A stretch of DNA of 36,813 nt from positions 1 to 36,813 of IMG/VR virus record IMGVR_UViG_3300016484_000181; one strand, 5' to 3'. A model generated the notes under the pieces. The model was given only the letters and a program-made list of their open reading frames with translations, had not been told where the DNA came from and made no database searches. Positions 1-26,082 of the stretch are shown here, piece after piece; positions within the stretch are counted from its first letter, which is position 1; each line of letters starts with the position of its first letter. The DNA comes from a virus (Duplodnaviria; Caudoviricetes). Both the position numbers and the translations under genes were made by a program.

Positions 1-3000
1 CCTGCTCATAGTTAGACACAAAGTCATCAAGTCTTTGTTTTAATGCCTTGTCAGATATAACTGACTTAAGACCTTTAGCCATGTCTAACAATGCATTGTT
101 TTCCATACCCTTCTTAGCCAATAGGTCGTGGAATGCTTCGTGGAAAACGGTGGTAACGCCAGCCGTTTCTAAGTTAATGTGTATGTCACCGTTAACGTAT
201 GACCCTCTGTTGTTATTAACACCTTGAGATATAGCCTCATCGTTTGTTATACCAGCAGACTTTGCAACACCAGCAACAAATGCATCAACGTTGTCGTGCA
301 AAATTATTTTTGCATTAGGAATGGCAGACAATACCTTCTGAACAGCTGTAAAAACTTTCTTTCTCTTTGTGTCAGTCTCCTTATTAATTCTTTCAGTAAC
401 AGTCTGACTAGTCTCTGGAGTAATAGTAACCTCAGATATTTGTGTAGTAGCCTGTTGCTCTGGCATTACCTTCTCGTCAAAGTTGTATCCAATAGAGAAT
501 GTCTTTAAGCCATCCTTTGTGTTCACTACAGAAACAAAGTCAGAGTCTGGACTATAGCTCTCAGTAAAGCTTAGATTGTCGTCGGACTTTACCCTTGGAT
601 TCATTGATCCGTCCTGGTACACCAATCCGTCAGAGTGTGCGACAGCCTCTTGGTTGAACTGTTTAGCAAAGTCAATGGCATCCTGTCTTGTTAGGTTAGG
701 AACAAAGAAAGAGTTCTCTGCCTGTCCATACTTTCCAGTTACACGTCTTGGCTTGTATCCTCTTCCAGTAAGCCACTCCTCAGCCTTTTGGTTTAGCTGT
801 TTGTTTTCTTCCTCGGTAAGAGGTTGGGCCATTGGGTTCTCAGCGGTAAGCAAACCGAAGTCTCCGTCAAGTTCTTTTGTCAACGTCTCTACGTCTTCAA
901 CTGGAAGCTCTTTAGATGCGTTCTCAACGTACTCACTGGTAGATCTGAATGCCTTTCTTTCCTCTGCCTGTGGTTCTGTTGGATATACGATGTCTACGTC
1001 AGCAATCTTTGCAGTAGCTCCTGGAACTACTTCTTCTTTGGTTGTGGCTTCACCTTCTTTGGTAACTTCTTCCCCTTGGACGATTGGTTCCACTCCTCCA
1101 CGTTCACCCCCTGCTTCTGTAACTCCTTCCTGTTCGCGTTGAAGTACGCCCTCTGTGCTTGGCTCTTGTACGGCATTTCCTAAATTTTTAAGTTGTTCAT
1201 TAATTTGACCTATTCTTTCCTTCTCTTTTACAACAAGGAAAGGATCCTTACCCTCAATCTTTTTATTTAGATTGTCTCTCTCTATCATTAGATCTAGTGC
1301 CACAGACTTATTGTCAATAGACATGTCTTCTGGCATAGAGTTTATTTTTCCTTTTATCTCTTTGAATGATTCTACAATTTCTTTTGCCTCGCTCTTTGAC
1401 ATTTTTCCACTAAGCATACTTGCCTTTAAGTTTGTAAGTAGTGCATTGTCAATTCCTTCAACGTTAGCAGATGTGATTAATAACTTTATCTGATCGTTAT
1501 TTTTTAGTGCATTTACTCCACGAGATAGTACGTCTACAGATTGTTGGGCAGACTCTACCATACCAGCACCTAATAATCCCATATAACCTTCGTATGCAAT
1601 GTCTCCAGTTATCTTCCAAGCCGATTCATTATTAAAATAATCAGTTTTTTTAATTCGATCGTAGGCTTCTTGAACTAATTTTTGAGCACCAGCCTGTGAC
1701 ATCTCTACTCCAGCTTCTACAGCAGAACTTCCTGCTGTTGTTATAGCAGCTCTACTAACGTATAGCTTTGTGCTGTTCATGATCTGTGCCTCGATCATTT
1801 CCTTACTAGCATTCTTTGATATCTGAGAGAACGCATTCTTTAGTATCCAACTTGATGCAGCCCTTTTAGCTACAGTCTTTTGTGTTAAATAACTTAATCC
1901 GTAGTTCTCAAGACCAGCACTAACTAGTGCATATAGCGATGACATTAATACCTTATCTTCTGATGATATGTCACCGACACCATCTAGAGTATCTCTCATC
2001 TCATTATATCCCATAGCATATAATGATATTAATGAACCTATTTGTGAAGCTCCTGGAATAACACTTTCCATTGATGAACCAATGGCTTTACCTATTCCCA
2101 TTGCAGACATTGATTTAGTTATTGATAGTGCTGCCTTGGTTAAATCAGATCTATTTTCTGACTGCATGTACTCCTCTGTAGTCCCAACACCAACTATATA
2201 GTCAATAAATTCTGTTCTCTGCTCCTTGTTCATCCCAGCTATAAAAGTTGGAACAGACATAGCTCCATCAACTATACTTCTGCCAAATGCACCAGCAGTC
2301 GTTCCAGTCATCTCTTTTATCATAAGGTTAGAGGCAATAGCCTTCTCTGAACCCTTAACATAATAGTTTAATGAGGTAAGGTCTCCCTTTACCTTTTCTC
2401 CCTTCATCTCTAAGTCAGCAGCACCATCCTTAATTTTCTGTCTGTAGTTGTTGTCGTATTCCTCTTGCGATATTTCTCCAGACTTAAGTTTAGCGTCTAT
2501 GTCATTTACGTATTGATTGAAGTTTTTTTGTTGAGATACAAACGTATTGTAGTTGTCCTTAACCTCATTAGAGTAATTGTTTGCGGCATTGATTATAATG
2601 TCGTCAGTCTTAATAGCCATGAACGCAGTTGCCTGCTCTTCTTTTGACTTGTTCTTTACTCTAGCATACGTGTCTCTTACTACCTTAGCATAGTCCTTTG
2701 TTAGTTGTGCTCCAGCTTCTTTAGCTTTTTTAGTTTCTTCTGGAAAGAACACAGACGATAGTCCCGATACATCTCTTCTGATCTGCTCGTTTAGTATTGT
2801 TTTATCTAAAGATGTTGCGTCAGATACTACCTTTGAGATCTCAGGATCTTGACCGTATATTGTTTCAGATATTCTTTTCTCTACACCAGCTACAGCCTCA
2901 TTGTACGCCTTGTAAGAATTGTTTAAGTCTGATACAACATTAGTTCTTAACCAGTCCTTTAGTACTTTAGCATTTTGCTTATCTGTATTATCAAAGAAAT

Positions 3001-3970
3001 TATCTAAAGAAATCTCATCACTAGCAACAGTAACACCATTATTTATCTTAGACACTTTAATGTTGTCTGTCATTATTCCAGTCTGTTCAAACTTAAACTC
3101 TGGAAATAATTTACTTAATGTTTCAACAGCATTTCCCTCGCTTCCACCTATAAGGTCTTTATTAACACTATTTAACCTAATATTAAAATTATTGATGTAC
3201 TCGTTCTTTCTTTTTATCTCTTCAGCTTTCTTATCATCAAACACCTCAGCATTTTGCTTGAAGTATGAGTTTAATGAGCTAACAGATTTCGGACTGACTA
3301 TAGTTAAGAACTCATTTGAACCTGGTCTCTTTACCTCCCATAGTCCGTCATCATTAATACGATATTCACTTCCTTCTTGACCTGGATATCCAGTAAAGTA
3401 TTGTTGTTCTTTACTTGTTGATGCCTGTACTCCGTTCTTCTTGTTTAGTTCAGCTACCTTCTTAGGATCGGTAACATCTTCGTATACATTTACATACGAC
3501 ATACCCATTGGCTGTCCAGTCTTAGGGTCAATTCTTTCTTGAATCTTTACCTCTTTCTTTTTCTGCCATGTTTGAACTCCATTGTTCTCATCTATCTTAT
3601 ACTCATCAGCTTTTTTTACTGGCTTAACCTGTTTAACTAGAGGGGTTTCCTTTGCCTCAAATACATCTTTATATTGTTGTACAGGTTGGTTTACATCAAT
3701 GTCCTGTATGTTCGTAAATCTCTCGATTAGTTGATTGTCCTCTGGAACTGCTACGGCCTTTTCTTCAAGCAGTTTTATCCTCTCTTCAACGTCACCAGCC
3801 TCTAATGGAGCATAGTTAGCTTGACCAATCTTTTTAAACCATCTACCGTTTTCTTTTTTGTACAAGGCATCAACGCCTTCATAGGTATATATACCATCAG
3901 GAAGTCCTTCTGGTGGATTGGCAGATCCATCTACCAATGCATCTGATGATTGTGAAAAGATATCTTCCAT
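1..3970 (-). CDS. Giant polyvalent ejection/internal virion protein, 3'-partial (over 1320 aa), with SAM-lyase-like and zincin domains
   Basis: ATG at 3970 (MEDIFSQSSDALVDG...). The frame was open in every segment I translated and runs off the left edge, which explains its absence from the ORF track. It has Gly/Ala-rich helices at about 1550-2300, TAENP/GKYG/ENSF/NQEAV at 476-862 and HEAFH at 128-142. It is the third gene after the GNAT, the usual position of the largest podovirus ejection protein. Confidence 0.85.
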   Translation of the reverse strand, partial: MEDIFSQSSDALVDGSANPPEGLPDGIYTYEGVDALYKKENGRWFKKIGQANYAPLEAGDVEERIKLLEEKAVAVPEDNQLIERFTNIQDIDVNQPVQQYKDVFEAKETPLVKQVKPVKKADEYKIDENNGVQTWQKKKEVKIQERIDPKTGQPMGMSYVNVYEDVTDPKKVAELNKKNGVQASTSKEQQYFTGYPGQEGSEYRINDDGLWEVKRPGSNEFLTIVSPKSVSSLNSYFKQNAEVFDDKKAEEIKRKNEYINNFNIRLNSVNKDLIGGSEGNAVETLSKLFPEFKFEQTGIMTDNIKVSKINNGVTVASDEISLDNFFDNTDKQNAKVLKDWLRTNVVSDLNNSYKAYNEAVAGVEKRISETIYGQDPEISKVVSDATSLDKTILNEQIRRDVSGLSSVFFPEETKKAKEAGAQLTKDYAKVVRDTYARVKNKSKEEQATAFMAIKTDDIIINAANNYSNEVKDNYNTFVSQQKNFNQYVNDIDAKLKSGEISQEEYDNNYRQKIKDGAADLEMKGEKVKGDLTSLNYYVKGSEKAIASNLMIKEMTGTTAGAFGRSIVDGAMSVPTFIAGMNKEQRTEFIDYIVGVGTTEEYMQSENRSDLTKAALSITKSMSAMGIGKAIGSSMESVIPGASQIGSLISLYAMGYNEMRDTLDGVGDISSEDKVLMSSLYALVSAGLENYGLSYLTQKTVAKRAASSWILKNAFSQISKNASKEMIEAQIMNSTKLYVSRAAITTAGSSAVEAGVEMSQAGAQKLVQEAYDRIKKTDYFNNESAWKITGDIAYEGYMGLLGAGMVESAQQSVDVLSRGVNALKNNDQIKLLITSANVEGIDNALLTNLKASMLSGKMSKSEAKEIVESFKEIKGKINSMPEDMSIDNKSVALDLMIERDNLNKKIEGKDPFLVVKEKERIGQINEQLKNLGNAVQEPSTEGVLQREQEGVTEAGGERGGVEPIVQGEEVTKEGEATTKEEVVPGATAKIADVDIVYPTEPQAEERKAFRSTSEYVENASKELPVEDVETLTKELDGDFGLLTAENPMAQPLTEEENKQLNQKAEEWLTGRGYKPRRVTGKYGQAENSFFVPNLTRQDAIDFAKQFNQEAVAHSDGLVYQDGSMNPRVKSDDNLSFTESYSPDSDFVSVVNTKDGLKTFSIGYNFDEKVMPEQQATTQISEVTITPETSQTVTERINKETDTKRKKVFTAVQKVLSAIPNAKIILHDNVDAFVAGVAKSAGITNDEAISQGVNNNRGSYVNGDIHINLETAGVTTVFHEAFHDLLAKKGMENNALLDMAKGLKSVISDKALKQRLDDFVSNYEQ
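1027..1176 (-). CDS. Small basic phage protein nested out of frame in the giant gene (MPYKSQAQRAYFNANRKELQKQGVNVEEWNQSSKGKKLPKKVKPQPKKK, 49 aa)
   Basis: ATG at 1176, TAG at 1029-1027, AT-rich upstream sequence (TTAAAAATTTAGGAA). Resembles stand-alone MP(F/Y)KSxAQ phage proteins from memory. Confidence 0.65.
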   Translation of the reverse strand: MPYKSQAQRAYFNANRKELQKQGVNVEEWNQSSKGKKLPKKVKPQPKKK

Positions 3971-3973: not shown

Positions 3974-5407
3974 TTATTTTAAAGATTCAACAGCTTCGTT
4001 CCATTTTTCTAAACTTGAACCAGATCCGTAACCTAGTGCTGGCCCAAAGTCAGACGTACTCCATCCTATGTTTGGTATTTTAGTAACCCATGCTCCGCCA
4101 GTTACTTCTCCCCTTCTATTTTTTTGTCCTTTAGGGTCGTATTCTTGAATTGCAAAACTACTTCCAGTCCAAATAACTTTTGTTGTTTTACCTCCAAAAA
4201 TATCATTTAATGAATTTACGGCTTTATTTTTATCTTCAGTTGATAGTGCTGTTTTAACTCTTTGAGCAAGACCTAACGCTTTCTTGTCAACTGTATCTTT
4301 AGAACCTCCTCTACCTGTTCTTGGAGCTCTTGGCTCATCTTCAGTTCTGCTCATTGGGAACTGAGCCACGATTAAATCTCTCAGAATGTCTTCTGCATCC
4401 TTTTGTTGTTCTGGAGTAATCTGTGGTTGGTATCTATTGTTTTGATCTAATGAAACTTTTATCATTCTGTAAGAAACATTTTTAGCAAGGTTTTCTTTCT
4501 CACTTTCAGTCAAAGGCTTTTTACCTAGAATGCTTCTAGACTGCTCCTCTTCATTTATTGCTGACTGAATTATTTGCATTCTGTCTTCATCATCCTCATA
4601 AAAATCATAACCTCCATATCTAGCTAGTGCTTGTGCGGTTGTTCTTGGATTGTTTGTCATTCCAGTTATTAGTGCAACAACAGAATTTGCAACAGCAGGA
4701 TTCTTCATTGGATCTTTTATCGTAACAGTCCCATCTTCCATTGTGTATGCCTGTTTCATACCCCTAGTAGCAGTTACTATTTCCTTTTCAAAGTCATATC
4801 TTTGGTCCATTATGTTTGACTTGTCTGCTATAGCTAAACTATTCATAACTTTTTTAGTTTGGCCAGTAGCTGGATCAATCTTAACCATGTATCCCTCGCC
4901 ACTATCTGGACTGAACATGTAGTTGGAGTTTCTTAGATCAGATAAACCTGCATGTTTTTGAAGCAAGAACTCTTCAAACTCTGATCCATCAGGTGGAGAT
5001 CCATCCTCTCCAGGTTGTTGCCTCATAAGTAACTCTTGGTTAACAGTGTCAAAGTTCTTCATACTGTTAGACATACTAGACCAGTAAGAGTTTACGTTAT
5101 TAATAATAGATCTATACTCAGCTGGTTTTATCTGTCCTGCTTTTAGTCTTTTGTTTGCATCATTAATAACGTTTCTTCCATTCTCTGCACCAGCCAATAC
5201 GTAGTCCTGTAAGCTTTGTGTTTTTAATAATTCAGAGTTGTTAATGGCTGATATAGAGTCAGTCATTATTTTATCTAGATCCTGTCTTTGTTTTTCTCTG
5301 TCAAGACCTATATTGTTAATTGTATTATATAAGCCACCAATCGCCTTACCCCAGTCTACTGCTTCAACTGGCACGAATGTTCCGTAATTTTGTCTTGTTG
5401 TTGCCAT
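3974..5407 (-). CDS. Putative ejection/internal virion protein (477 aa)
   Basis: Helical, charged ORF between the small and the giant ejection-type genes, with 3-nt gaps on both sides. Confidence 0.6.
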   Translation of the reverse strand: MATTRQNYGTFVPVEAVDWGKAIGGLYNTINNIGLDREKQRQDLDKIMTDSISAINNSELLKTQSLQDYVLAGAENGRNVINDANKRLKAGQIKPAEYRSIINNVNSYWSSMSNSMKNFDTVNQELLMRQQPGEDGSPPDGSEFEEFLLQKHAGLSDLRNSNYMFSPDSGEGYMVKIDPATGQTKKVMNSLAIADKSNIMDQRYDFEKEIVTATRGMKQAYTMEDGTVTIKDPMKNPAVANSVVALITGMTNNPRTTAQALARYGGYDFYEDDEDRMQIIQSAINEEEQSRSILGKKPLTESEKENLAKNVSYRMIKVSLDQNNRYQPQITPEQQKDAEDILRDLIVAQFPMSRTEDEPRAPRTGRGGSKDTVDKKALGLAQRVKTALSTEDKNKAVNSLNDIFGGKTTKVIWTGSSFAIQEYDPKGQKNRRGEVTGGAWVTKIPNIGWSTSDFGPALGYGSGSSLEKWNEAVESLK

Positions 5408-5410: not shown

Positions 5411-6121
5411 TTATGGGTTTTGATTATAATAATTAGGTGGAGCTAATGGTCCTTGACCAGCTGCAAATGGATCAAAATATTGAGCTCCATATCCTCCAGC
5501 AGCAGTTTCCGCCTCGGTAAGTGGTCTATTATAATTTAATCCAGGTAATGATTTTTTTGCGTTTTGTTTATTTTTATACAAATTTGCTAATTCAGAAGCA
5601 GATGATAACGCACTACCAGCAAATCCAAATGCGCCTTCAATTGCTGCGTTTCTATTAGCCTCAGCTTGAGCTCTTCTCATTTCAGCATCTTGCTTTTCAC
5701 CAAATGAAATATTAAAGTCTCTCTCTTGTTTTCTTTGATTAATACCCTGCTGTGCCTGAGCCTGTAATGCGTCTCTCTCAAACTTTAACTCATCAAGTCT
5801 AGCTGCATTTTGAAGGTCACTCTGTTCTCCTGCAACTGCAAGCTGTCCTACACCTCCAATAACACCCTCAGCACCTGCTCCTTGAAGCATGTTTACTGCC
5901 TGTGCCTCTCTTTGTGCTTGAGATTGTTGTGCTAATTGAGTTCCTAGAGTTGGAACTTGTAGTTGCTTGAATGCATTCTGTTCGCTTATACTCTTTAAAT
6001 CTTGACTTGCCTTTAGTGATGCTGCCTCAGCTTTCTTCATAGCTTTATTTTGACCGATAGCTTGAGCTGCGCTAACACCCAAACCACCTAAAGCTACTAT
6101 TGTTCCTGTTACTGCTGCCAT
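5411..6121 (-). CDS. Putative small ejection protein (T7 gp14 / P22 gp7-like architecture)
   Basis: Hydrophobic Gly/Ala N-terminus (MAAVTGTIVALGGLGVSAA), Gln/Ala-rich coiled coil, second hydrophobic patch AIEGAFGFAGSALSS, directly after the GNAT gene. Confidence 0.65.
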   Translation of the reverse strand: MAAVTGTIVALGGLGVSAAQAIGQNKAMKKAEAASLKASQDLKSISEQNAFKQLQVPTLGTQLAQQSQAQREAQAVNMLQGAGAEGVIGGVGQLAVAGEQSDLQNAARLDELKFERDALQAQAQQGINQRKQERDFNISFGEKQDAEMRRAQAEANRNAAIEGAFGFAGSALSSASELANLYKNKQNAKKSLPGLNYNRPLTEAETAAGGYGAQYFDPFAAGQGPLAPPNYYNQNP

Positions 6122-6122: not shown

Positions 6123-6521
6123 TTATAAAATCTTTATCATTTCAGTTGTGTTTGCTGATCCCTTTTGGAATCCGCACTCTTCGTACATCTTTACTAGAGA
6201 TGGACTCTTTAACGTTGAAAAAGCATAAAGTAAACCTTTTTGTTTACAAATCTCTAAAAGAGAATATATTAAGAACTCTATGGCCTCCTTTCTGTCTTTT
6301 TCTCTGTAATGGAAGTTCGAAACTATGAACTCAATCCAAGCAACCTTTGAGTTTGTCATGTACACAAATCCAGCGCATACATCAACTCCATTGCTTGATA
6401 CCATAAGTCCTCCTGTACCACTCTCTGGCAAGAAGTCTTTCGATATAACTGGCCATCTCCAATCCTTCCACCAGCCACACAACTTATGATAATCGTCTTC
6501 AACTAGGTATCGGACTTCCAT
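6123..6521 (-). CDS. GNAT-fold acetyltransferase-like protein
   Basis: MEVRYL..DDY start, VCAGFVY and AWIEFIVSN strands, C-terminal KMYEECGFQ (Y-x-x-x-G-F motif). Position matches T7 gp13-like genes before ejection proteins. Confidence 0.65.
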   Translation of the reverse strand: MEVRYLVEDDYHKLCGWWKDWRWPVISKDFLPESGTGGLMVSSNGVDVCAGFVYMTNSKVAWIEFIVSNFHYREKDRKEAIEFLIYSLLEICKQKGLLYAFSTLKSPSLVKMYEECGFQKGSANTTEMIKIL

Positions 6522-6525: not shown

Positions 6526-6533
6526 CAAATTTA
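6526..6533 (-). promoter_or_regulatory. Bacteroidota -7 promoter element TAAATTTG
   Basis: Matches TAnnTTTG, lies 4 nt before the ATG at 6521, and overlaps the upstream stop codon. Confidence 0.6.
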
Positions 6534-7361
6534 CATAAAACTTTTGAATATTGTAGAGCCTATCTCGAATAATTCAACAGGAACACTAGAGTTATATGTT
6601 AGTGTAATATCCATATAATAACCCCTAGCACCATAAGACTCAGCTGTTGAGTTTTTAATAGCTACTAACTCTTGTCCATTAGAAGGAAGAGTACCAGTAA
6701 AAGACAAATAAATATCTGGATTTCCAGTAGCTGTATTATTATCTACAAATCCAACATCACCTATATATGTTAATGTTGTTCCAATGTATCTATATATTTG
6801 ATCTGGAGGAGATACATCCTTTATTTCTAATCTTTCTTGTGGAAACTTATTTATTGTTAAAACATCAGTGTACGGAAATGTTGCTGGCCCACTCTGTAAC
6901 AGGTTACCAATACCTATTATTCTGGTTGAAAGTTGATCATCTAATTGACTAAAATCAGTCAAGAAGTTTCCTATTGGATTAGGATTTCTTCTTATGTGTG
7001 CAAAATAACTTCCTTCCTTAAGCTCAAACCATGAATCGTCAATATTTCCAGATATTAAATCAGTAAAAACAGAAACAGTCCAAGGACTAGTACTCTCTAG
7101 TGAAACCGTCTTAAACAATTTAACTTCTAGTGGAGAATCATTAAATACCGTTCTAACAGAGCAAAATGCAGCATTTGCATAAGGCGTAGATGGATAGTAT
7201 ACAGTTCTTTGAGCTGAAGGTGAGTTGTGAAGGTATATGTTACCATTCTTAAATGTGTAAAAGCTATTACTTGAGTATACCATGTAATCTGGAATAAAAC
7301 TCCAGAATGAAGTCCATCCTTGAACATCGTCAGAGTATGATATAGTAAGTGGTGCTAACAT
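6531..7361 (-). CDS. Tail stabilisation/muzzle protein, C-terminal part encoded as a separate gene
   Basis: TISYSDDVQGWTSFWSFIPDYM..FYTFKNGNIYLHN, VKLFKTVSLES, KEGSYFAHI and YGARGYYM..VELFEIGS resemble the C-terminal portion of crAss-like stabilisation proteins. Confidence 0.65.
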   Translation of the reverse strand: MLAPLTISYSDDVQGWTSFWSFIPDYMVYSSNSFYTFKNGNIYLHNSPSAQRTVYYPSTPYANAAFCSVRTVFNDSPLEVKLFKTVSLESTSPWTVSVFTDLISGNIDDSWFELKEGSYFAHIRRNPNPIGNFLTDFSQLDDQLSTRIIGIGNLLQSGPATFPYTDVLTINKFPQERLEIKDVSPPDQIYRYIGTTLTYIGDVGFVDNNTATGNPDIYLSFTGTLPSNGQELVAIKNSTAESYGARGYYMDITLTYNSSVPVELFEIGSTIFKSFM

Positions 7362-7365
7362 AATA

Positions 7366-7373
7366 CAAATTTA
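7366..7373 (-). promoter_or_regulatory. Bacteroidota -7 promoter element TAAATTTG
   Basis: Matches TAnnTTTG in the intergenic gap, 4 nt before the ATG at 7361. Confidence 0.65.
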
Positions 7374-7379
7374 ATGAAT

Positions 7380-8294
7380 TTAAACCAAACAGCTATCTAT
7401 TGACTTTACTAGCTTATAGTAGTTGTAAGAGCACTTGTACTCAGACACTTTTTCGTTACTATTGTATGGGTAAGAGTCCATGTACTTAGCCTTGTGAAAC
7501 ATCTCGTCCTTGTCAGACATTACTCCTGCATTATGAAAGAAGAATACTTGATCCCATCTCTTTATATTACAAGTAGCCCAGCAAAAGTCAAACTCTCTAG
7601 GAACAACAACCTCTATACCTAACTTCCAAGCTGTCCATAGCTCGGCCCACATGCTTGCAGTCCATGCCTGTATACCATGATTACTTCCATCATTTCTAAC
7701 GTGCTGTAGCTGCATCATAACGTCATATAGCTCAAATGAGTATTTCTCAACCATCTCCCAGTACTCGTGAGTTAAATTCTTCATTAGCTTCTGTGCTCCG
7801 CCACTATTATTTTGGTTTGACTTGACAAGTTCTCTAGATATCCCAACAACGTCACACATGGCATCTAACACCTCTTCTCCCTTGCTTGCTATATACTCAT
7901 AGCCTATGTACGATATTGTGTCAGAGAAGTACCACTTGTCATCGTTCAAGAACTTGCCGAAGTCAAGGAACCTAGTAAATGCAAAGTCAGCATCAACAAA
8001 AAAATAAGCGCTGTTATCTGGGTGTTCTTTAAAGTGTTTCTTAAGTATATGTGCCTGTATTGCAGGAAGATACTTGCACTCACCTAGAGTATCCTCATAA
8101 AAGAAAAAGTTAACTCTTGAGTGAACTTTCTGTAACTTTAACCAAGACTCTGGTATGTCTTCTTGATATCCTGCAACAACATGCATCTGTTCTGGATCAT
8201 ATCCAGTCAACATGAGGTTAACTATTTGCACCTCAATTTGCCAAGCATAATAGTCTATAGCTGGTTGAGCTGATAGAAATTTAATTTTATTCAT
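7380..8294 (-). CDS. Putative GT-A peptide O-glycosyltransferase (HPAT/SERGT, GT95/GT96-like)
   Basis: YYAWQ near the N-terminus, YLPAIQAH, DxD in FFVDADF, GGAQ, AWTASMWAE, FHNAG. The ATG at 8294 overlaps the upstream TAA (TAATG) and is preferred over the TTG at 8300. Confidence 0.6.
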   Translation of the reverse strand: MNKIKFLSAQPAIDYYAWQIEVQIVNLMLTGYDPEQMHVVAGYQEDIPESWLKLQKVHSRVNFFFYEDTLGECKYLPAIQAHILKKHFKEHPDNSAYFFVDADFAFTRFLDFGKFLNDDKWYFSDTISYIGYEYIASKGEEVLDAMCDVVGISRELVKSNQNNSGGAQKLMKNLTHEYWEMVEKYSFELYDVMMQLQHVRNDGSNHGIQAWTASMWAELWTAWKLGIEVVVPREFDFCWATCNIKRWDQVFFFHNAGVMSDKDEMFHKAKYMDSYPYNSNEKVSEYKCSYNYYKLVKSIDSCLV

Positions 8295-11137: not shown

Positions 11138-11142
11138 AATTT

Positions 11143-16172: not shown

Positions 16173-16907
16173 TTATTGTGTTTGTTGTGCTGTTTGTATC
16201 TCCTCTGCTTTAGCGTCTTGAACAACTTCAGACTCTCTGATAGATAGACCAGCATATTGTAATATTTTAGAAACAAGATTAGGTAACTCCTCATATGGAA
16301 CTTCAAAATCTTGAAACTGCGCATTTGTTGGATCATATAATGGCTCACCATTTGATATTATATTATATGTCCAGTTTGGATCTTGAGGATATCTAACATA
16401 TCTAATCTGAATATTAGTGGCATTGCTTACAGAAGGAGATATCGGATTCATTAATGAATTTGGATACACAGTAACAGCTCCTGGATCAGACATAACTATA
16501 TATGCTGGATAGCTAGCCGTTGGAGCAGTTAAATTGGAATTTAAAATATTTAATATTTTAGAATGATCAGCCCTATCTACTTCAACATTATTGTTATATA
16601 TTATTTTTTCTATGTAATAGTAATGTGGAGGTAAATCCAATGTGCCAGTCAGTGGATTATAATTCATTGTTTGATATTCAGAAAATTTATCTATTATTTC
16701 TGAAACTCTTTTTGATATGTTTGAGTAACCCTCACCATGATAACGAGAATTCTGTTTGATTATAGCGTTGCTATATTCATACATATACTTTTGAAATATA
16801 TCTAACTGCGCTTGTCTAGCATATGTATTGAACTCCATAGGAGTTATATAACCCCTATTATCCTTGTTCAATATAAACATGACGTTATTGCGAACTTCGT
16901 TGATCAT
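16173..16907 (-). CDS. Tail ring/tubular protein
   Basis: LNKDNRGYITPMEFN..A..AQLDIF, YVRYPQDPNW and LVSKILQYAG motifs, plus synteny. Confidence 0.7.
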   Translation of the reverse strand: MINEVRNNVMFILNKDNRGYITPMEFNTYARQAQLDIFQKYMYEYSNAIIKQNSRYHGEGYSNISKRVSEIIDKFSEYQTMNYNPLTGTLDLPPHYYYIEKIIYNNNVEVDRADHSKILNILNSNLTAPTASYPAYIVMSDPGAVTVYPNSLMNPISPSVSNATNIQIRYVRYPQDPNWTYNIISNGEPLYDPTNAQFQDFEVPYEELPNLVSKILQYAGLSIRESEVVQDAKAEEIQTAQQTQ

Positions 16908-18169: not shown

Positions 18170-19615
18170 TTATCCCTTGAAGATAACGAAGTTGTTAGCA
18201 CCAAGTGTACAAAGCGCTCTTTCAGACAAGAAGTTAACTTGCATTGCATCAAGATCGCTAGTTGCAGCACCACCAGCTGAACCAGTCATCCAAGTTTTGT
18301 ATCTACGATCTTCAGCCTCAGAAGCTCTAAAACGCACGTGTAAGAACGGACGTCTAGCGTTTTTACCAAGAACTTGATCGTAAACAGTCATTGTTCCAGC
18401 AGGAACCAATACACCGTTAACTACACCACCAACTAAACCTCCACGAAGAGTTGCATCGTTAAGGTATTTCCAGTCAGTTTTGTAGAACTCGTATCCTCTC
18501 TTGAATCCAGAGAAACCAAGGTTCAATGCCATCTCCTCACTGTTATCAAATAAACCGTAAGAAGTACCACCAGCTCCGTAAGAGTTTTGAGCAGCCAACA
18601 TATCATCGATATCGAAAGAGAACTGACGATTCAAGAATAATACGTTTTCAGCGATAGCACCTTGTCTGTCTAATCTTTGAATGATAGTGTCAAAGTCAGC
18701 CAATGAAGATGGATTACCACCAGACCAAATGTTACCTCTAGTCTCAATAGCATCAAATAAACCTTGAGTACCAGCAGCTGTAGAACCAGCAGTTGTAGAA
18801 CCAGTTGCAGGAACAGTGCTAGGAGAAAGGTAAGCTAATGCATCAGAACCAGCTTGAGCAGGTACACCTTCAACCATTGCCATTTCAAGATAATCCTCAA
18901 AACGTAAACGAGTTTCGTGCTCTGACTTCATGTACCATAAGTACCCAGTAGCTCCATTTTCTGTAGTTACTTCAACCCATCCAACTTGAGCCATGTCAGA
19001 ACCAGATACAACATATGTATCTTTAATGATAATTGGTTTAACATCAAAGAATAAGTCTTCAGCCTCTAAAGATCCTACCATTCCAGTATCTCCCTTTCTA
19101 AACTCAGAACCGTAAACAAATACAGTTACAAGTTCAGTAGTTTGAGTAAATGGAGAACCAGATGCGTTGTAAAATTTAACAGTAAATGTAGTACCAGAAG
19201 GAGATACAGAACTAATAACACCTTTAGCAGAGTTTGCAGCTACTGATTGAGATGAAATAAATACTGTTTGATTTACTCTAAAGTTACATACAGTCAATGG
19301 AGAGGTAATAGGCATAGCAAAAGTTGCTGTGTCTGAACCAGCTGGGTCATTTGGAACGACATTTGTGTACTTTGTATGTAAACGACCTTGCTCTGCCCAT
19401 TTAATCATGTCAGAGTTTGTAGGAAGTTCAGCACCAACCATACGCAAGAAAGATGCGATTGATCTGTTTCCATAACGCTCAAATTCTTGCTCGTAAGTAT
19501 CTGGAAGATACTGATTCAAGAAGTTAAAGTTTGTAATATAATTTGAAGACAATGTTGCCTTCACCGCACTAGGTGTGATTGCTACACCTGGGCTTAATGC
19601 TAATGTACCAGCCAT
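18170..19615 (-). CDS. Major capsid protein (crAss-like, HK97 fold)
   Basis: QYLPDTYEQEFERYGNR, WAEQGRLH, TRLRFEDYLE, LNLGFSGF and PFLHVRFR motifs. Follows the scaffold and is followed by a terminator. Confidence 0.88.
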   Translation of the reverse strand: MAGTLALSPGVAITPSAVKATLSSNYITNFNFLNQYLPDTYEQEFERYGNRSIASFLRMVGAELPTNSDMIKWAEQGRLHTKYTNVVPNDPAGSDTATFAMPITSPLTVCNFRVNQTVFISSQSVAANSAKGVISSVSPSGTTFTVKFYNASGSPFTQTTELVTVFVYGSEFRKGDTGMVGSLEAEDLFFDVKPIIIKDTYVVSGSDMAQVGWVEVTTENGATGYLWYMKSEHETRLRFEDYLEMAMVEGVPAQAGSDALAYLSPSTVPATGSTTAGSTAAGTQGLFDAIETRGNIWSGGNPSSLADFDTIIQRLDRQGAIAENVLFLNRQFSFDIDDMLAAQNSYGAGGTSYGLFDNSEEMALNLGFSGFKRGYEFYKTDWKYLNDATLRGGLVGGVVNGVLVPAGTMTVYDQVLGKNARRPFLHVRFRASEAEDRRYKTWMTGSAGGAATSDLDAMQVNFLSERALCTLGANNFVIFKG

Positions 19616-19634
19616 TTTTTAAAAATTTAAAAGT

Positions 19635-20756
19635 TTAACGTTTTTTAATTACTAATCTACTTCCTCTGTCTGGATCTATTACTCTAATCTTTACTCCCTC
19701 TGATGGTGTAGATTGAGTTGCTTGACGAGTCATGTCAATATTTTTAGACTCCTTAGCAACATTTCCTACCGCATCTGCCATACCTTTTTCATAAAAGAAT
19801 TTGGCAAACTTATCAGGATTTCTAGCTATTGAAATAGAACGGTGAAAGGCTTCAGCATCTGCAAGATATCCTTTTTCATCAAGGAATTGTGAAACAAAGT
19901 TCCTTAAATCATTTTGTTCTTGCAGTAAGTTCTTACTATCTCCTGGCTTATAAACCAACTTCTTGTTCTCATCGACATTAAATTTGAAACCTTCAAATTT
20001 GTCAGAGAAAAGTTCTTGAGTTTTTTTAGAGAAGAATTCTGATCTTCTTGCGTTTTCTTCCTCCATAGACTTGGAAGACTCTTTATATCTCTTGAAAGCA
20101 TCGTAGTTTTCTTTTTCTTCCTGTGGAACAAATGTTTCCCTTGACTCAAGTGGAACCCTGTATTGTTCTTTAAGGTCGTTAAAGTACTTCTTAGCTTTTG
20201 AGAGCTCTTTTTTCTTTGCTAATCGTTTCTTCTTGATTTCTTTTTCATCATCGAAGTCTTCATCATAAGCAAATCTATCTGAAACATCAAACTTAATGTC
20301 TTCTGGTTCTAGATCTGGATTTTGCTCACGCTGATATTCAAAAAGCAAAGACTCTTCGTCCATTTCATCGTAGTTCTTATTCAAACGAATAAAATCTTCG
20401 ATTCCACGTCCTGTATCTTTTTTGTACTTTAGAAACGCAGAAACATCTTCGGGTAAATCCTCGTTTTGTTGTCTCTGCTCAAACAACTCATCTAAGTTGT
20501 TTATCTCTCTATTGTACCTTTGTCCAATATATGAAAGAACTTTACTATCATCAATTTCGTCAACAGGTGTTGACTCATTTGTTTCTGTAATAACTGTCTC
20601 TACAGTTTCTGGTGTAGTTACAATTGTTTCTACTGTCTCTGAAGGTTCAGCAACAACACCAGTCGATTCCTCGTGTTGTTTTAATAATTGTTCCTCAACT
20701 TCGGCAACAGACTTTTCTTCAAAGTCTACCGCCCTTACTTTAATTTCTCCTTCCAT
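19635..20756 (-). CDS. Capsid scaffolding/assembly protein
   Basis: Very acidic low-complexity N-terminus, coiled coil, FAKFFYEKGMADA, directly before the capsid gene. Confidence 0.7.
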   Translation of the reverse strand: MEGEIKVRAVDFEEKSVAEVEEQLLKQHEESTGVVAEPSETVETIVTTPETVETVITETNESTPVDEIDDSKVLSYIGQRYNREINNLDELFEQRQQNEDLPEDVSAFLKYKKDTGRGIEDFIRLNKNYDEMDEESLLFEYQREQNPDLEPEDIKFDVSDRFAYDEDFDDEKEIKKKRLAKKKELSKAKKYFNDLKEQYRVPLESRETFVPQEEKENYDAFKRYKESSKSMEEENARRSEFFSKKTQELFSDKFEGFKFNVDENKKLVYKPGDSKNLLQEQNDLRNFVSQFLDEKGYLADAEAFHRSISIARNPDKFAKFFYEKGMADAVGNVAKESKNIDMTRQATQSTPSEGVKIRVIDPDRGSRLVIKKR

Positions 20757-20777
20757 GTTAATTTAATTTAATTTTTA

Positions 20778-20785
20778 CAAAGTTA
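20778..20785 (-). promoter_or_regulatory. Bacteroidota -7 element TAACTTTG
   Basis: TAnnTTTG in the gap before scaffold-capsid, followed by a TAAATTAAATTAA leader. Confidence 0.65.
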
Positions 20786-20797
20786 ATAATAATTTTA

Positions 20798-21430
20798 TTA
20801 CTCATTTTCGTAGAACATTGACTGCGAGTCTTCTGTGTGCCACTTCTCGTAACCCTCGCAATTAAAGTACTCGTTGTTTACTAAATAGTTTGGTTTTTCT
20901 GGGAATGGTTTAGTTACAAATGAAGGCTCAGACCATTTTATCCTATTGTTAGGTTGTAATGCAATTTGACCATTATCAAGAAGTATTATATGATGTGACT
21001 TGTGCTCAAGTCCATCCTCAGCTAATGAAAGATCAGTATTTAAGTCGTTAGCTCCCCAGTTTATTGTAGCATAGTAACTACCAGAGTACCAATTTCTATC
21101 CTTCATGTATACATCAACCTTAGTGTCATAAACATAAGAAAGATGCAATAACGTAAAGTTATAAGAAAAACAATTCCATATCTGTAGGTAATGGAACGGC
21201 AAATCTGGATCTGGAGTCTTAGGTTCTGTAAGTAATGCGTGTGATGGAAGTTTATCTCTCATTACACCATTTTCAAGTAACACTTGAAATAATGCAGCCT
21301 GTCCAGGCATACACCTTACGGACATTATAACTCCTGGTGTAAACTCACCATGACCTTCTTTGAATTGGTACATGTACTCATTCCTAACAAATACTTTGAG
21401 AGGAAAAAAGTTGTGTTCTATGTATGCCAT
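20798..21430 (-). CDS. Hypothetical phage protein (210 aa)
   Basis: Clean ORF with LQIWNCFS, EHKSHH and LDNGQIALQPNNRI motifs. No function recognised. Confidence 0.7.
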   Translation of the reverse strand: MAYIEHNFFPLKVFVRNEYMYQFKEGHGEFTPGVIMSVRCMPGQAALFQVLLENGVMRDKLPSHALLTEPKTPDPDLPFHYLQIWNCFSYNFTLLHLSYVYDTKVDVYMKDRNWYSGSYYATINWGANDLNTDLSLAEDGLEHKSHHIILLDNGQIALQPNNRIKWSEPSFVTKPFPEKPNYLVNNEYFNCEGYEKWHTEDSQSMFYENE

Positions 21431-21431
21431 A

Positions 21432-23861
21432 CTACTTTGGTTCGAAAGACTCTAAATCAAATCCATCTAGAGAATCTTCAGTGCTCTCAAAGTTAATTGG
21501 AGGAAGATTGTTTTTTCTTTGATTAATTAATTCAGATTGTCTTGATGCTTGGATATCAACTCTTTTATCTTTAGCTTTCTCTTTATCTTCATCTCTCTTT
21601 TTAAGTTCTTCAGACTCCATGCCTTTTAATTGCATGTTGTACTGGAACTCAAGATCCATTAGCTCTCTTTTCATATCAACCTCAGCCCTCATTCTCATTA
21701 TATCATAATTAGCTTCAGCCTCTTTAATCTGAATTTTACTTTGAGCCTCCATTTGTAGCAATTGAGCCTTAGACTCAGCAGCAGCTTGTTGTGACTGCAT
21801 GTTAGTCTGCATTTGCATTTGGTACTCCATCTGCTTGTCCTTTTGTTGCTGCTCAATTCTTCTCTTTCTTTTCATCTTCAACAACTCATTAGCCAACTTA
21901 ATATTCTTGATGTTTCTAATATCAATAGCATCTTCTAGATCAATTGTTTGTTGTTGTAGAGCAACTTGAATGTTAGCTTCAAGCATTTGTCTCTCATCCT
22001 CATCTGGATCAAGGTCAATGAATATACCGAAATCAAATAAGTAAAGTTCTCTCATCTCATCGAGAATAGATATGTTATACTTACCAATTTGCATTGCAAA
22101 CTCTTCAGCAAAGTCAGAGTACTCTAGTATATCGGCAACTCTAATAGAAACACATTCAGCCAATCTCTTTGTGATGTTTAGGTTTCCTTCTAAGATATGT
22201 CTTGTAGCTGTGTTAGAGTTCATGGCAGCCATCTTCTGTATGCCAACTAAAGCATCTGGATTAGGCGTGCTTCCGTCTCTTGCCTCATTAATACCAGTCA
22301 CATCTCTAATCATGCTTAGATAGTGATTGTAGTTATTTATAAGAGAAGACATCTTAGCTTGTCCACTATTTGTGTTTAACTCTTGAATTGGAATTCTAGC
22401 ATTGTTAAACTCACCATCTTGAGTATAGCTTCTACCAATAACACTACCAGTTTGAAAGTAAAGTTTCAATGCATCCTCTGGATTGTATGCAGCACCAGTT
22501 CCAAGGTCAACCTCATTAATACCATCGGCATCAATAAATACACCATCTGGAACTACTCTTGCTGTAACTTGCTGTAGCTTTAAGTGTGTCAACTGAATCT
22601 GATCAGCAAATGGAATCATACGTCTAACTAATGACTCCATTGCTCCCTTATACATTCTAGGAGCAAAAGCTACATAGTTAGGATAAGCTCTTTGAGATGC
22701 TGACTTAGGACGAACCATGTTACGCATCATCTCCCACTTGAGTATAATATTTGTACCAGCCACAAGAACACCCTCATACCACACATCTCTAACTGCCTCT
22801 ACTCTTTCAAATGGCATTCCATCTTCCATTGGTGGATTAAAATCTTCATCCTTCCTAATTACTCTCTCTCCACCATTCTCTAGTAATTTCTTCTTCCAAA
22901 CAAACTTCTTGCTTGCCTTGTAGTTAAAGTATATAAGTGTTACGATTTCGTTTGTAAAGTAATCATCTTGATAGTTTCTGATAATAGGAAAGTATGTGTA
23001 CCAAGCAGCACTACTATTTCTAATCTCGTTTAATTGCTCTTCAGTAAGTGTAGGATCAATCTTTAGAACCTCTGTGTAGTGCATCTGCTTAACCTCACCA
23101 AAATAGTAACAATCTGAGAAGTCATTCTTCTCAGTGTAGCTATGAATCCAGTTTGCAGGGTCAACGTATTCAACCTTTAATCCATCGTTAACTAAGAAAG
23201 AATGCTTAACAACAGATACGCCAAGCGTCACTAAGTCATAGTTCATTAGTTTTCTTAGCTCATCGTAACTGTTCATCTCAAATATAGTGTCAATAGCAAT
23301 CTCATTAGCTATCTCTATACTCGGCTTGTACTTGATTTGCATGTACAACTCAAGCTCTTCATCAGTATCTGGAAGTTCTTTTGGATCAACATTAAATGCA
23401 TTTACACCAAACTGATCTTGAGTCATTTGTAAGAAATCTTTGGCTACCATGTCAGCCTCAATCATTTCTTGGAATATATTCTTTTTCTCAGCAGACATTA
23501 CGTCTTGAGCTTCTGTCCTAACTTTAAACAGTCTATCAGACATTCCATTAACAACAACGTCAACGAACTTAGGAATAACAGGAACTGGAGTCCAGTCTAA
23601 GTTCATCATTGACATGTCACCATTTATAGCTAACTCATCCTTGTACTTTTGTACTGGCTGTTGACCACGAGCATAAAGTCTTAATCTGTGGAACTCACCC
23701 CACTGATCATAAAACCTACAGGTATTATTTTTTCTCTTGAACCATTCTCCTTCAATGGCCTTGCCAACACTTAAGCCGTACTTAACTGTTTGCTTCTCTT
23801 CATCCGATACCATTTGGCTTGGAAACGGATTTTGATATATGACAACGGATGGTTTCTCCAT
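21432..23861 (-). CDS. Portal protein
   Basis: LDWTPVPVIPKFVDVVVNG and IRDVTGINEARDG motifs, Gln-rich C-terminal coiled-coil barrel, follows the terminase. Confidence 0.88.
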   Translation of the reverse strand: MEKPSVVIYQNPFPSQMVSDEEKQTVKYGLSVGKAIEGEWFKRKNNTCRFYDQWGEFHRLRLYARGQQPVQKYKDELAINGDMSMMNLDWTPVPVIPKFVDVVVNGMSDRLFKVRTEAQDVMSAEKKNIFQEMIEADMVAKDFLQMTQDQFGVNAFNVDPKELPDTDEELELYMQIKYKPSIEIANEIAIDTIFEMNSYDELRKLMNYDLVTLGVSVVKHSFLVNDGLKVEYVDPANWIHSYTEKNDFSDCYYFGEVKQMHYTEVLKIDPTLTEEQLNEIRNSSAAWYTYFPIIRNYQDDYFTNEIVTLIYFNYKASKKFVWKKKLLENGGERVIRKDEDFNPPMEDGMPFERVEAVRDVWYEGVLVAGTNIILKWEMMRNMVRPKSASQRAYPNYVAFAPRMYKGAMESLVRRMIPFADQIQLTHLKLQQVTARVVPDGVFIDADGINEVDLGTGAAYNPEDALKLYFQTGSVIGRSYTQDGEFNNARIPIQELNTNSGQAKMSSLINNYNHYLSMIRDVTGINEARDGSTPNPDALVGIQKMAAMNSNTATRHILEGNLNITKRLAECVSIRVADILEYSDFAEEFAMQIGKYNISILDEMRELYLFDFGIFIDLDPDEDERQMLEANIQVALQQQTIDLEDAIDIRNIKNIKLANELLKMKRKRRIEQQQKDKQMEYQMQMQTNMQSQQAAAESKAQLLQMEAQSKIQIKEAEANYDIMRMRAEVDMKRELMDLEFQYNMQLKGMESEELKKRDEDKEKAKDKRVDIQASRQSELINQRKNNLPPINFESTEDSLDGFDLESFEPK

Positions 23862-23862
23862 T

Positions 23863-26082
23863 CTATTCTATAATTTTGCTGTGACTGCCCTGATTATTAT
23901 ATCTTACAAATTTAATACTAATTTTTGATTCTTTTCTCTCTGGAGTAAACATATGTCTTCTTGTTGCCATTATTGCTAATCCAGAACTAATTGAAGCATC
24001 GTATTTGGTCCTGTTCATTGGGTCAAACCTGGCCCAATCCTCAAGAGTTTTATTGAAGTACATGGACCCAATAGTCTCTGGATCTCTATACGTACCCTCT
24101 GTATCAAAACCTACGTACTCTTCGATGTAAGACTCTATACATGACGCATGAGCTTGTCTAACGTCCTCGCTAGAGTTTGGTATACCACCTATCTCAAGCT
24201 CAGTTTTTGATAGCTTATTCATGTTCTTATCTGGCCTATTCATAGCAAACCCCCTGTATCCCCTATTCTTAAAGTGATACAATAGTCTAGCCTTGTTGTT
24301 CTCTGCAAGTATTGGCATTCCATAAAAGTGACAAGCCATTAGTACATCCTCAAAAAATATTTCAGCTGTTTGTGGCCTAGCTATGTACTCTAAAAAGAAT
24401 TCATTAGTTGGACCTTCAGACATGTGAAACTTGGTCATACCATGGAGAGCACCGTTAGAACCACCTCCTCCAACAACACCCGATATGTCATAAGGGTCAC
24501 AACCAAACGCTCCCATATGTTCATTACCTGGATATTTTTTCCCATTTTTAGTTATAACATTATTTCTTAAATTCTGTTTTGGTATCCATGACACCAAGAA
24601 CCTACCATTCTTATCTGGAGTCCATATCACCTCAGTGTCTTTCTCACCGTTCTTCCAGTGGAAGTATCCTCTAGTCAAGAACTTCTCCTTGATTAGAGAG
24701 TCGTTATAGTCAATCTGCTGATATATCTTAGTCAAGTTGAATATAGACTGCTTAGACTCGTCTCTAAACGCATGAGACTCAGTCCTAGGAAACTGTCTAT
24801 AGAACTCGTTAAGGGCATCAGAGTCTGATTTGAGTGCGTTAACCTCGTTGTTCCACCAAGTTATTACACCTGTACTTATCATCTCTCCATCTATACCCTT
24901 TATAGGTTTTTCTGGATTATCAAATACTGGCCATCCAAACTCATCGATGTATCCCTCAACGTTCCACTCCATTGGAATAAACAACGAGTATAGACCACTC
25001 TTGGTCTGATCATTAGCCGATCTCTGGGCCACACTACTATCATTGTATAGCTTCTTAAAGTTCTCACCGCCCTTTGGTAGTGCGTTTGACGTTGATCCCA
25101 TCATACACTTACCAATGACCTTAGCTCCCAAACGCAAACAGGTCTTTGTTACTCTCCAGTTATTTAAAATGTTCTCTGGCTTTTCCCACTTACCACTCTC
25201 GTCATGAACAAGCAACAATAGTTTCTCACCATCGTAGCTGTTATCGGCTGTGTTCTTCCAGTCAATAGTTGTGTCTAGTCCCTCTATGTCCTCAGTCTTT
25301 TCCTCGTCCATATTCTTCCTAGTAATCTTACTAGCAGGTACACGAAACGCCAGCTCAGTTTTTGGATTATCCATACCGTCCTGTATTGGCTTGAAGAAGA
25401 ACGGATAGTTTCTTATGATTGGTACAACCTTGTCGGTAAACATCTTCTTGGCATCGCTACCAGTCTTTGATAGTATGCCTATTCTAGAGTCCCTTACAAT
25501 TGTACCTGTATTGCACGTCTCAGCTGAACTCATAAAAGAGAATCCAGAACGTCTGTTCTTTAGGTAGCACATACCAAACGATCTGTTGTCCGCCTTGCAT
25601 GCCTCCCAAAATATATAAAATATTCTGTTTGACTCCCTAAAGTCTGGAAGACCAATATCAATCTTGGTCCATTGTAAATACATATAGTGAGTTCCAGTTA
25701 TGTACGTTGGCTTTCCGTTATTTACAAACCAAAATCCATTGTCTCTCCTATCAAACTCATTCTCTATATAGTCTACGTACTGAACCTTGAATGCGTTGTC
25801 CTTTCTATTCCAATCGAATATGCTCTTTATTCTTTGAAGTTCTTTTGGATACTCAACAGCCTCCCACTTTGAACCTCTATCTTCTACCTTGTCTGGAACA
25901 GATGGTAGAGCTATCTTTAGTCCGCTTATATTGTATATATCACCTATTGTTCCATCTTTAGATATAACTACAAGGTCATGATCTTTATTGTATCCATACT
26001 CCCAGTTCTTCCTCCTATTTTTATTAGAGATTGTAGACTTACTTACATAGTCCTCAAGAACAGTATACAGATTATTTTCCAT
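23863..26082 (-). CDS. Terminase large subunit
   Basis: Walker A-like KNRRSGFS, Walker B LLVHDESGKW, MGSTSN coupling motif, nuclease motifs GCDPYD, LAENNK and YDASISS. Confidence 0.92.
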   Translation of the reverse strand: MENNLYTVLEDYVSKSTISNKNRRKNWEYGYNKDHDLVVISKDGTIGDIYNISGLKIALPSVPDKVEDRGSKWEAVEYPKELQRIKSIFDWNRKDNAFKVQYVDYIENEFDRRDNGFWFVNNGKPTYITGTHYMYLQWTKIDIGLPDFRESNRIFYIFWEACKADNRSFGMCYLKNRRSGFSFMSSAETCNTGTIVRDSRIGILSKTGSDAKKMFTDKVVPIIRNYPFFFKPIQDGMDNPKTELAFRVPASKITRKNMDEEKTEDIEGLDTTIDWKNTADNSYDGEKLLLLVHDESGKWEKPENILNNWRVTKTCLRLGAKVIGKCMMGSTSNALPKGGENFKKLYNDSSVAQRSANDQTKSGLYSLFIPMEWNVEGYIDEFGWPVFDNPEKPIKGIDGEMISTGVITWWNNEVNALKSDSDALNEFYRQFPRTESHAFRDESKQSIFNLTKIYQQIDYNDSLIKEKFLTRGYFHWKNGEKDTEVIWTPDKNGRFLVSWIPKQNLRNNVITKNGKKYPGNEHMGAFGCDPYDISGVVGGGGSNGALHGMTKFHMSEGPTNEFFLEYIARPQTAEIFFEDVLMACHFYGMPILAENNKARLLYHFKNRGYRGFAMNRPDKNMNKLSKTELEIGGIPNSSEDVRQAHASCIESYIEEYVGFDTEGTYRDPETIGSMYFNKTLEDWARFDPMNRTKYDASISSGLAIMATRRHMFTPERKESKISIKFVRYNNQGSHSKIIE
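23907..23914 (-). promoter_or_regulatory. Possible -7 element TAAATTTG for the portal gene
   Basis: TAnnTTTG inside the 3' end of the terminase, 45 nt before the portal ATG. Confidence 0.45.

Follow-up and report, generated by a model that had tools for sequence, protein, structure and literature searches.

The window analyzed here is the entire 36,813-base viral record IMGVR_UViG_3300016484_000181 (~60% complete). At its start lies a giant open reading frame (ORF) on the minus strand, read from position 3970 to position 2, which runs off the record end with 1323 amino acids (aa) in view. Within this ORF, at 476..862 (minus strand; aa 1037-1165), we identified a predicted T3-type S-adenosylmethionine (SAM) lyase-fold domain (DUF3293/PF23780-like). 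A sequence-only reading of the same DNA had quoted this peptide as an SAM-lyase-like domain inside a virion ejection protein. Translation of 476-862 on the minus strand reproduces the peptide in frame and with no stop (D1037 corresponds to nucleotide 862; the quoted F is aa 1038), and the closest full-length relatives are also giant. A further ~45 residues lie upstream of the domain core. The flanks, described earlier as low-complexity linkers, are indeed polar and rich in E, K, Q and T. Their entropy is 2.9-3.3 bits (aa 941-990 and 1181-1210), lower than the 3.4-3.85 bits within the domain. The supposed linker on the left, however, proves to be conserved as a motif (see below).

Pfam matches the domain to DUF3293 (PF11697; 53.9 bits against a cut-off of 25, E 2.8e-14) over model positions 1-73 of 73 and, at the border of significance, to PF23780 (S-AdoMet_lyase; 28.2 bits, cut-off 28). 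DUF3293 is matched by 26/26 aligned relatives and PF23780 by 17/26 at E<=0.001; the nearest Atlas cluster (0.94, a recognition slightly below the tool's mark) is 45% DUF3293 and 26% PF23780. When PDB sequences were searched with the domain and its profiles, SAM lyases were absent from the results, which consisted of noise and of designed kelch repeats whose score was a sum over weak repeats with no single stretch passing; neither the domain nor the giant ORF matched a PHROG. A six-frame profile search of the window, Flavobacterium phage elemoF_6-3D and parts of phi38:1 found no second copy (best other E 0.09). The domain is present in 103 proteins of 2,317-5,000 aa and in 68 cultured-phage records, all of Flavobacterium elemo phages (77.5% identity in the 60 shown), and the Elemovirus orthologue is annotated "Structural protein; DUF3293". 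One contig of sequencing run X4 covers 433-1093, across the domain. Because the 103 large proteins, the 68 cultured-phage records and the X4 contig carry the domain region, it is not an assembly artefact; the Pfam scores show that it is no chance match either. Contigs from an RNA library (X15) cover 522-867; as contigs, they cannot show transcription.

The domain was modelled with AlphaFold2 from a 42-sequence alignment (predicted local distance difference test, pLDDT, 95.1; predicted TM score 0.88). In a Foldseek search of the PDB the top three rows were all SAM lyases, the best being T3 SAMase (8bb1, E 6.5e-3, TM 0.59). When the model was compared with 48,161 representatives by VIA-align, T3 SAMase was the only chain with Z>=8 (7ock, Z 10.5, 123 residues aligned, root-mean-square deviation (rmsd) 3.1), followed by Svi3-3 at 5.5 and the first unrelated chain at 5.2. 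A second VIA comparison gave 8bb1 a Z of 12.0 over 117 residues (rmsd 2.6), covering model residues 10-136, whereas Svi3-3 (Z 5.5-5.6, 82 residues aligned) was confined to model residues 1-95. The model thus supports the SAM-lyase fold proposed earlier, that is, the PII-like ferredoxin fold seen in T3 SAMase and Svi3-3. For this domain, however, the accompanying statement on trimers probably does not hold. Unlike the trimeric Svi3-3, T3 SAMase forms a nine-stranded barrel that is monomeric when bound to MetK and dimeric on its own (Andriianov et al., bioRxiv 10.1101/2023.02.27.530186). Because the model fits the T3 barrel better than it fits Svi3-3, a trimer is probably not applicable, and the domain is predicted to be a self-contained T3-like barrel. 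Such a barrel would suit a position within a long chain, since it could refold alone after extrusion and would need no trimer.

SAM lyases share their fold with the PII-like superfamily, of which they are part (Guo et al. 2021, PMC7877911), which raises the possibility of a non-catalytic module that binds a ligand or MetK and acts as a sensor or inhibitor. Also, catalytically dead T3 SAMase retains some anti-BREX activity via MetK (bioRxiv 10.1101/2023.02.27.530186). We consider such a module improbable here: PII proteins reach a Z of only about 4 against the model, a few copies could not saturate ~7,000 MetK molecules (bioRxiv 10.1101/2023.02.27.530186), and the E and Q residues described next are nearly invariant.

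The candidate active-site residues lie in two motifs, G1079-x-Y1081...E1085 (716..736, minus strand) and Q1107-E1108 (647..652, minus strand). From motif order and secondary structure, we infer that they are equivalent to Svi3-3 G56, Y58 and E69 (T3 E68) and to Svi3-3 Q104-E105 (T3 Q94-D95), respectively. In Svi3-3, G56, E69 and Q104 are strictly conserved and Y58, S71 and E105 line the pocket (PMC7877911); the equivalent E and Q are required for activity in both Svi3-3 (PMC7877911) and T3 SAMase (bioRxiv 10.1101/2023.02.27.530186). Conservation was assessed in 242 sequences, query included, all gathered by similarity to the query. G1079 and Y/F1081 are each present in 241/242, E1085 in 242/242, S/T1087 in 239/242, Q1107 in 241/242 and E/D1108 in 219/242, and G, Y/F, E, Q and E/D occur jointly in 218/242. 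The motif series G-x-Y, E-x-(S/T), Q-(E/D) noted by the sequence-only reading is present in the stated order, and by sequence the domain has the conserved residues of SAM lyases (G, E, Q, Y and an acidic residue after Q). In the model they map to a hairpin and to the loop that follows helix 2. Only 4 residues separate Y from E, compared with 11 in Svi3-3, which would leave a short loop to close over the SAM pocket.

Sequence comparisons also indicate that the domain is under purifying selection. Of 14 loci picked by hand, among them three duplicate pairs, 4 were saturated; in the other 10 the ratio of nonsynonymous to synonymous substitution rates (dN/dS) of the domain is 0.066-0.146, against 0.16-0.59 for aa 600-930 where alignable; these loci were found via the domain, which biases the contrast with its flanks. 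In one duplicate pair the dN/dS of the downstream zincin is slightly below that of the domain. Relative to Elemovirus, the domain is 77.5% identical and the two alignable flanks 31-38%.

The zincin-like metallopeptidase domain (2..373, minus strand) is represented by its N-terminal part, cut by the window end. Its HEAFH motif (128-142; aa 1277-1281) lies 112 residues downstream of the lyase-fold domain, with H1277 and E1278 at 100% and H1281 at 96% in a 272-row alignment; profile scans of the giant ORF gave no Pfam match in this region. Among 193 long carriers, HExxH occurs within 200 aa after the domain in 104 and a zincin profile matches 147. Ranked by identity of their N-terminal part, the nearest two full-length relatives have 3,051 and 3,259 aa. 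Several of 12 relatives scanned add LPD23, LPD38, ART-PolyVal, GNAT or DUF7178, and none of the full-length relatives scanned has an RNA polymerase match. Polyvalent proteins have been proposed to be injected and self-processed, with the HExxH zincin as a hub domain (Iyer et al. 2017, PMC5512222). Judged by its sequence, the giant protein belongs among them: it is large and multidomain and, taken with its relatives, combines a zincin HExxH with disparate enzymatic or LPD domains. One relative, the giant ORF of locus L093 (12919-20396), stops at 1,917 aa and is followed by a new ORF, which could be a real split or a sequencing error; P0002 is a comparable uninterrupted form.

Following the tail genes is an operon of three genes, of which the giant ORF (2..3970, minus strand) is the third and by far the longest. 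The first is a 236-aa Gly/Ala-rich (29%) ORF with a hydrophobic N-terminus (5411..6121, minus strand; phrog_13764 virion structural protein, E 8.8e-8), which by size and position resembles gp14, and the second is a 477-aa ORF (3974..5407, minus strand), which by the same features resembles gp15; the giant ORF takes the gp16-like position. All three, the giant as far as seen, contain no Cys, while five other window proteins have 2-9; 90/103 giant relatives are also Cys-free. To our knowledge, ejection proteins lack Cys; the word "cysteine" is absent from the two ejection-protein papers searched for it. Order and sizes match the small, medium and giant genes of the gp14/gp15/gp16 ejection operon (PMC8954989). 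In the related phage phi38:1, the syntenic gp098-101 are labelled structural by similarity, and Elemovirus gene 88 matches phi38:1 gp101 at 23% over 348 aa; gp101 carries neither the domain nor HExxH. Section 6 of the phi38:1 proteomics paper (PMC13288928) covers methylated proteins only, under a different numbering, and does not show gp101. Operon layout, lack of Cys, the zincin and the polyvalent domains of relatives thus lend indirect support to placing the domain in an ejection-type giant protein, and we hold it quite likely that the giant protein is packaged and ejected.

These features suggest the following scheme. The giant polyvalent protein would be packaged and ejected along with the phage DNA, and the domain would refold alone after extrusion and convert SAM to methylthioadenosine and homoserine lactone. 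The adjacent HExxH zincin may release the domain from the giant protein. Loss of SAM would then slow SAM-dependent type I restriction or BREX early in infection of a small aquatic Bacteroidota cell. We think that the domain is probably catalytic and consider an anti-restriction role slightly favored; release by the zincin is possible but somewhat doubtful. Among polyvalent proteins, P1 DdrB is cut before packaging and the N4 virion RNA polymerase (vRNAP) is packaged whole (PMC5512222).

How much SAM could be removed depends on copy number. The E. coli SAM pool is ~200 uM. Our kinetic estimate used assumed pools, no SAM resynthesis and an assumed turnover (kcat) of ~10/s, that of Svi3-3 being 9.5 per second (PMC7877911). 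The ejected 3,500-aa vRNAP of N4, which has an HExxH domain, is present in 4 +/- 1 copies per virion (PMC13434306), and the crAss001 virion could accommodate ~6 copies of each of its large cargo proteins (PMC10172136). By calculation, 4 copies would halve 50 uM SAM in 0.1 fL in ~38 s and 200 uM in 1 fL in ~1,500 s. Because copies per virion are few, injection would work only if the cell is small and poor in SAM, where the pool could plausibly be drained in about a minute, or if a partial delay is enough; in a large, well-fed cell the effect would be partial. The earlier proposal that SAM is depleted before any phage transcription is therefore quantitatively doubtful for an E. coli-sized pool (~25 min to halve it) and plausible only in small, starved cells. 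Local loss of SAM where the DNA enters was also calculated and is too small to matter (<0.1%).

A rarer substrate would ease the copy-number constraint. The ejected domain could cleave SAM-AMP, the signal of CorA-type III CRISPR systems, and thus be a virion-borne anti-CRISPR. SAM-AMP lyases have the same fold and only E and Q in common with SAM lyases, whose T-loop would clash with AMP (PMC12255297); that loop is short here. SAM-AMP signalling has been described in Bacteroides (PMC12255297), which is in the same phylum as the probable host, and few copies would be well matched to a scarce substrate, whose half-life would be 10-100 s at an assumed kcat/Km of 1e6. Against this, T3 SAMase is the best structural match of the model (Z 12.0), and type III signalling needs phage RNA, so that a pre-formed enzyme would gain less. 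The SAM-AMP lyase entries 9GAD/9GAB were absent among the matches listed in the fold searches, which do not exclude unlisted families. We regard cleavage of SAM-AMP as unlikely, at roughly one chance in seven.

The copy-number problem would disappear altogether if the domain acted late in the producer cell, where abundant unpackaged precursor or a zincin-cut fragment could lower SAM, with the result that new phage DNA escapes methylation or that defences which need SAM fail late in infection. Processing of P1 DdrB before packaging fits this explanation (PMC5512222), and so does the lack of an own methylase of three families (PF00145, PF01555 and PF02086), which 0/5 near-complete relatives encode, a result also compatible with an injected lyase. 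Stand-alone relatives of 191-236 aa also exist outside giant proteins. A late cytoplasmic enzyme would need no fusion to an ejection protein, yet among the best 150 of the 643 representatives of the domain family (50% clustering) 124 have >=1,000 aa and 13 have <300 aa; also, the zincin of N4 vRNAP does not prevent this protein from being packaged uncut (PMC5512222). We therefore rate late action as rather unlikely, at about one chance in five. Injection is kept as the best reading because fusion to a large protein is the rule and because none of the five relatives has a methylase of the three families.

The stand-alone relatives are in other viral contigs (L016:9899-10597, L021:9887-10597 and L024:9857-10432). 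By eye, two of the three lie just downstream of a 623-aa ribonucleotide reductase-like gene and one lies near an MT-A70-like methylase-like gene. A word-based search for stand-alone homologues of 70-226 aa yielded 0/6 candidates. A 113-aa Elemovirus elemoA_7-9A protein (BFVD A0A7D5JMV7) gave a weak Foldseek row (rank 45, E 0.23) and may be a distant stand-alone relative or a chance match. A scan of genome contigs found one locus, L146, in a Flavobacteriaceae metagenome-assembled genome, which is either a prophage or a mis-binned phage; its ORF has >=1,885 aa, follows ORFs of 695 and 326 aa and carries the domain at a different position, near the N-terminus.

To avoid selecting on the domain itself, we anchored a comparison on the neighbouring 132-aa ORF (6123..6521, minus strand), a homologue of Elemovirus gene 85 and phi38:1 gp098. 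This gave 31 loci, of which 19 show >=1,800 aa of the giant ORF, most of them cut at 2,300-2,600 aa. The domain was found to occupy a swappable cassette, aa ~975-1171 (~458..1048, minus strand), which is replaced in L095 and L099, where the flanks are 77-89% identical, and absent in L104, L106, L107, L110 and L122. Both flanks of this slot were detected in 10/19 anchored giants; the gap between them is 53-63 aa in 5 giants (two near-duplicates), 226-374 aa in 3 carriers, and 199 and 402 aa in 2 others. The slot is bordered on the left by the conserved acidic motif mentioned above (aa 927-973; 1052..1192, minus strand), which is 84-89% identical in L095/L099 and present in 39/193 and 25/120 carriers and in 12/19 anchored giants; speculatively, it could be a recombination anchor or a zincin cleavage region. 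That the slot is empty in 5/10 anchored giants with both flanks might suggest that the domain is a functionless relic or structural spacer, but a dN/dS of 0.07-0.15, invariant active-site-type residues and the 643 representatives make this highly improbable.

In L095 and L099 the slot holds a second family of ~150 aa (L095:15389-15901 and L099:16767-17897; P0243 and P0244; also loci L126-L145), with >=298 proteins and no Pfam match, none relevant being found in 19 members. It has invariant G-I-Y, S-I-D and Q-E-S motifs, with Asp where the lyase-fold domain has Glu. The two families were never found together (0/120 listed, 0/241), and hhalign links them at 77% (pairwise E 2e-5). A model of the second family (pLDDT 89.8) matched no SAM lyase among the 50 VIA matches listed (best Z 4.3) and matched 6zm9 in Foldseek at rank 28 only (E 0.54); Atlas matches (0.85) are unnamed. 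Because the motifs and hhalign speak for it while fold searches are negative or weak, we treat a second lyase family as a lead and not as a result. In L099, an additional ~200-aa module (16767-17390) with no convincing Pfam match precedes the second family in the slot. What is new here is the swap slot itself, which holds this module in some phages and in relatives is either empty or occupied by a second, mutually exclusive family. A more speculative extension, which we consider doubtful, is that freshwater and Baltic Flavobacterium podophages maintain a dedicated, recombining "SAM-attack" slot in the ejected giant and that either of two distantly related lyase families, never both, occupies it, so that a few molecules destroy SAM or an SAM-derived alarm signal in small starved cells before phage gene expression.

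Several observations weigh against an injected SAM lyase. The ~1,500 s needed in an E. coli-sized pool is long, and T3 uses ~10,000 SAMase copies plus MetK inhibition (bioRxiv 10.1101/2023.02.27.530186). The full effect of T3 requires that inhibition, partly via a free N-terminal tail (bioRxiv 10.1101/2023.02.27.530186), which an embedded domain would lack unless cut out. In the Foldseek check against Svi3-3 and T3 SAMase that had been suggested, SAM lyases rank first and T3 best, but no PDB match reached E<=0.001. The PF23780 score is at its cut-off and falls to 27.8 bits when 16 flanking residues are added. The residue equivalences are derived from order and position and not from residue-level superposition, and the Y-to-E spacing differs. 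The "structural" labels have an unstated basis (Elemovirus) or come from similarity (phi38:1). Finally, the domain is present in 3/19 neighbour-anchored giants and is thus dispensable at lineage level. On balance, we give even chances to the complete proposal, that a predicted T3-type SAM-lyase-fold cassette in a polyvalent protein likely ejected with the DNA cleaves SAM and likely slows type I restriction or BREX.

The remaining genes point to a short-tailed phage of Bacteroidota. The virion genes (terminase, portal, capsid, tail) and GroEL share one strand, with the major capsid, portal and large terminase genes at 18170..26082 (minus strand). Of 85 phage records matched by the capsid protein, 68 are from Flavobacterium phages (Elemovirus), 15 from Cellulophaga phages and 2 from others, and window DNA was found in sequencing runs from freshwater, estuary or aquatic samples; a freshwater phage with Flavobacterium as host is likely. 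A crassvirus muzzle C-terminal domain, part of the short-tail nozzle, lies at 6531..7361 (minus strand; PF25729, E 8.7e-10). The muzzle gene is a single ORF in Elemovirus and phi38:1 and is split here into ORFs of 1371 and 276 aa (6531-15258, minus strand), between which lie a 947-aa Thr-run/Cys-rich ORF and a 306-aa ORF. A phage GroEL/GroES-like pair is at 34416-36222 (minus strand), and a 168-aa ORF on the other strand (33950-34456, plus strand) is the sole apparent plus-strand gene.

In the literature examined, characterised phage SAM lyases are free proteins or cloned fragments. No paper among the matches listed describes a virion protein that contains an SAM lyase (Jerlstrom Hultqvist 2018, Hoetzinger 2021, the supplement of Iyer et al. 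and the PDB 9LQD paper were outside the search), and a literature search for the term DUF3293 returned no paper. If true, a virion-delivered lyase would provide metabolic counter-defence at time zero, give DUF3293 a function, add an SAM-lyase domain to the polyvalent-protein repertoire and represent a way of countering defence that is effective only under natural conditions, in small starved cells. The proposal is directly testable because cultured Elemovirus phages that carry the domain and their host BAL314 exist. Given the copy-number problem, a test would be informative either way: success would mean that a few molecules can tilt restriction in small aquatic cells or that the substrate is a rarer one such as SAM-AMP.

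Among known systems, T3 gp0.3 (PDB 8BB1 and 7OCK; PF23780) shares the predicted fold over 117-123 residues (Z 10.5-12.0) and the order of E followed by Q and an acidic residue (E68, Q94, D95). Unlike the domain described here, which is internal to a >3,000-aa virion-block protein and 11-15% identical, the T3 enzyme is a free protein first made after entry, and it binds MetK partly by its N-terminal tail and also by its beta4-beta5 loop. Svi3-3 (PDB 6ZM9 and 6ZNB; PMC7877911) has G-x-Y, E-x-S and Q-E in the same order on a ferredoxin-like core, but it is a trimer with inter-subunit active sites and a longer hairpin, and the C-terminal strands of our model do not align with it. The ends of its native ORF are undefined, and thus Svi3-3 may also derive from a longer protein. 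The SAM-AMP lyase/candidate AcrIIIB4 (Chi et al. 2025, PMC12255297) shares the superfamily and the E and Q, and its phage version is likewise fused to another domain; it is trimeric, SAM-AMP-specific and not described as a virion protein.

For the carrier, polyvalent proteins (PMC5512222) offer the same combination of a giant multidomain virion-block protein and an HExxH zincin, with LPD23, LPD38, ART-PolyVal and GNAT in relatives; in the main text of Iyer et al. 2017, SAM, lyase and DUF3293 all have 0 occurrences. Podovirus ejection operons (T7 gp14-16, P22 gp7/20/16, N4 gp52/51/50 and the crAss001 cargo proteins) are alike in gene order and sizes, and the N4 giant shares the HExxH domain, but the likeness is one of order and size with no sequence homology shown, and the relatives scanned lack the polymerase match. 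The Elemovirus giant (QMP85251.1, Flavobacterium phage elemoF_6-3D) is encoded by an orthologous gene that carries the same domain and lies in the same gene order, but its N-terminal 920 aa do not align.

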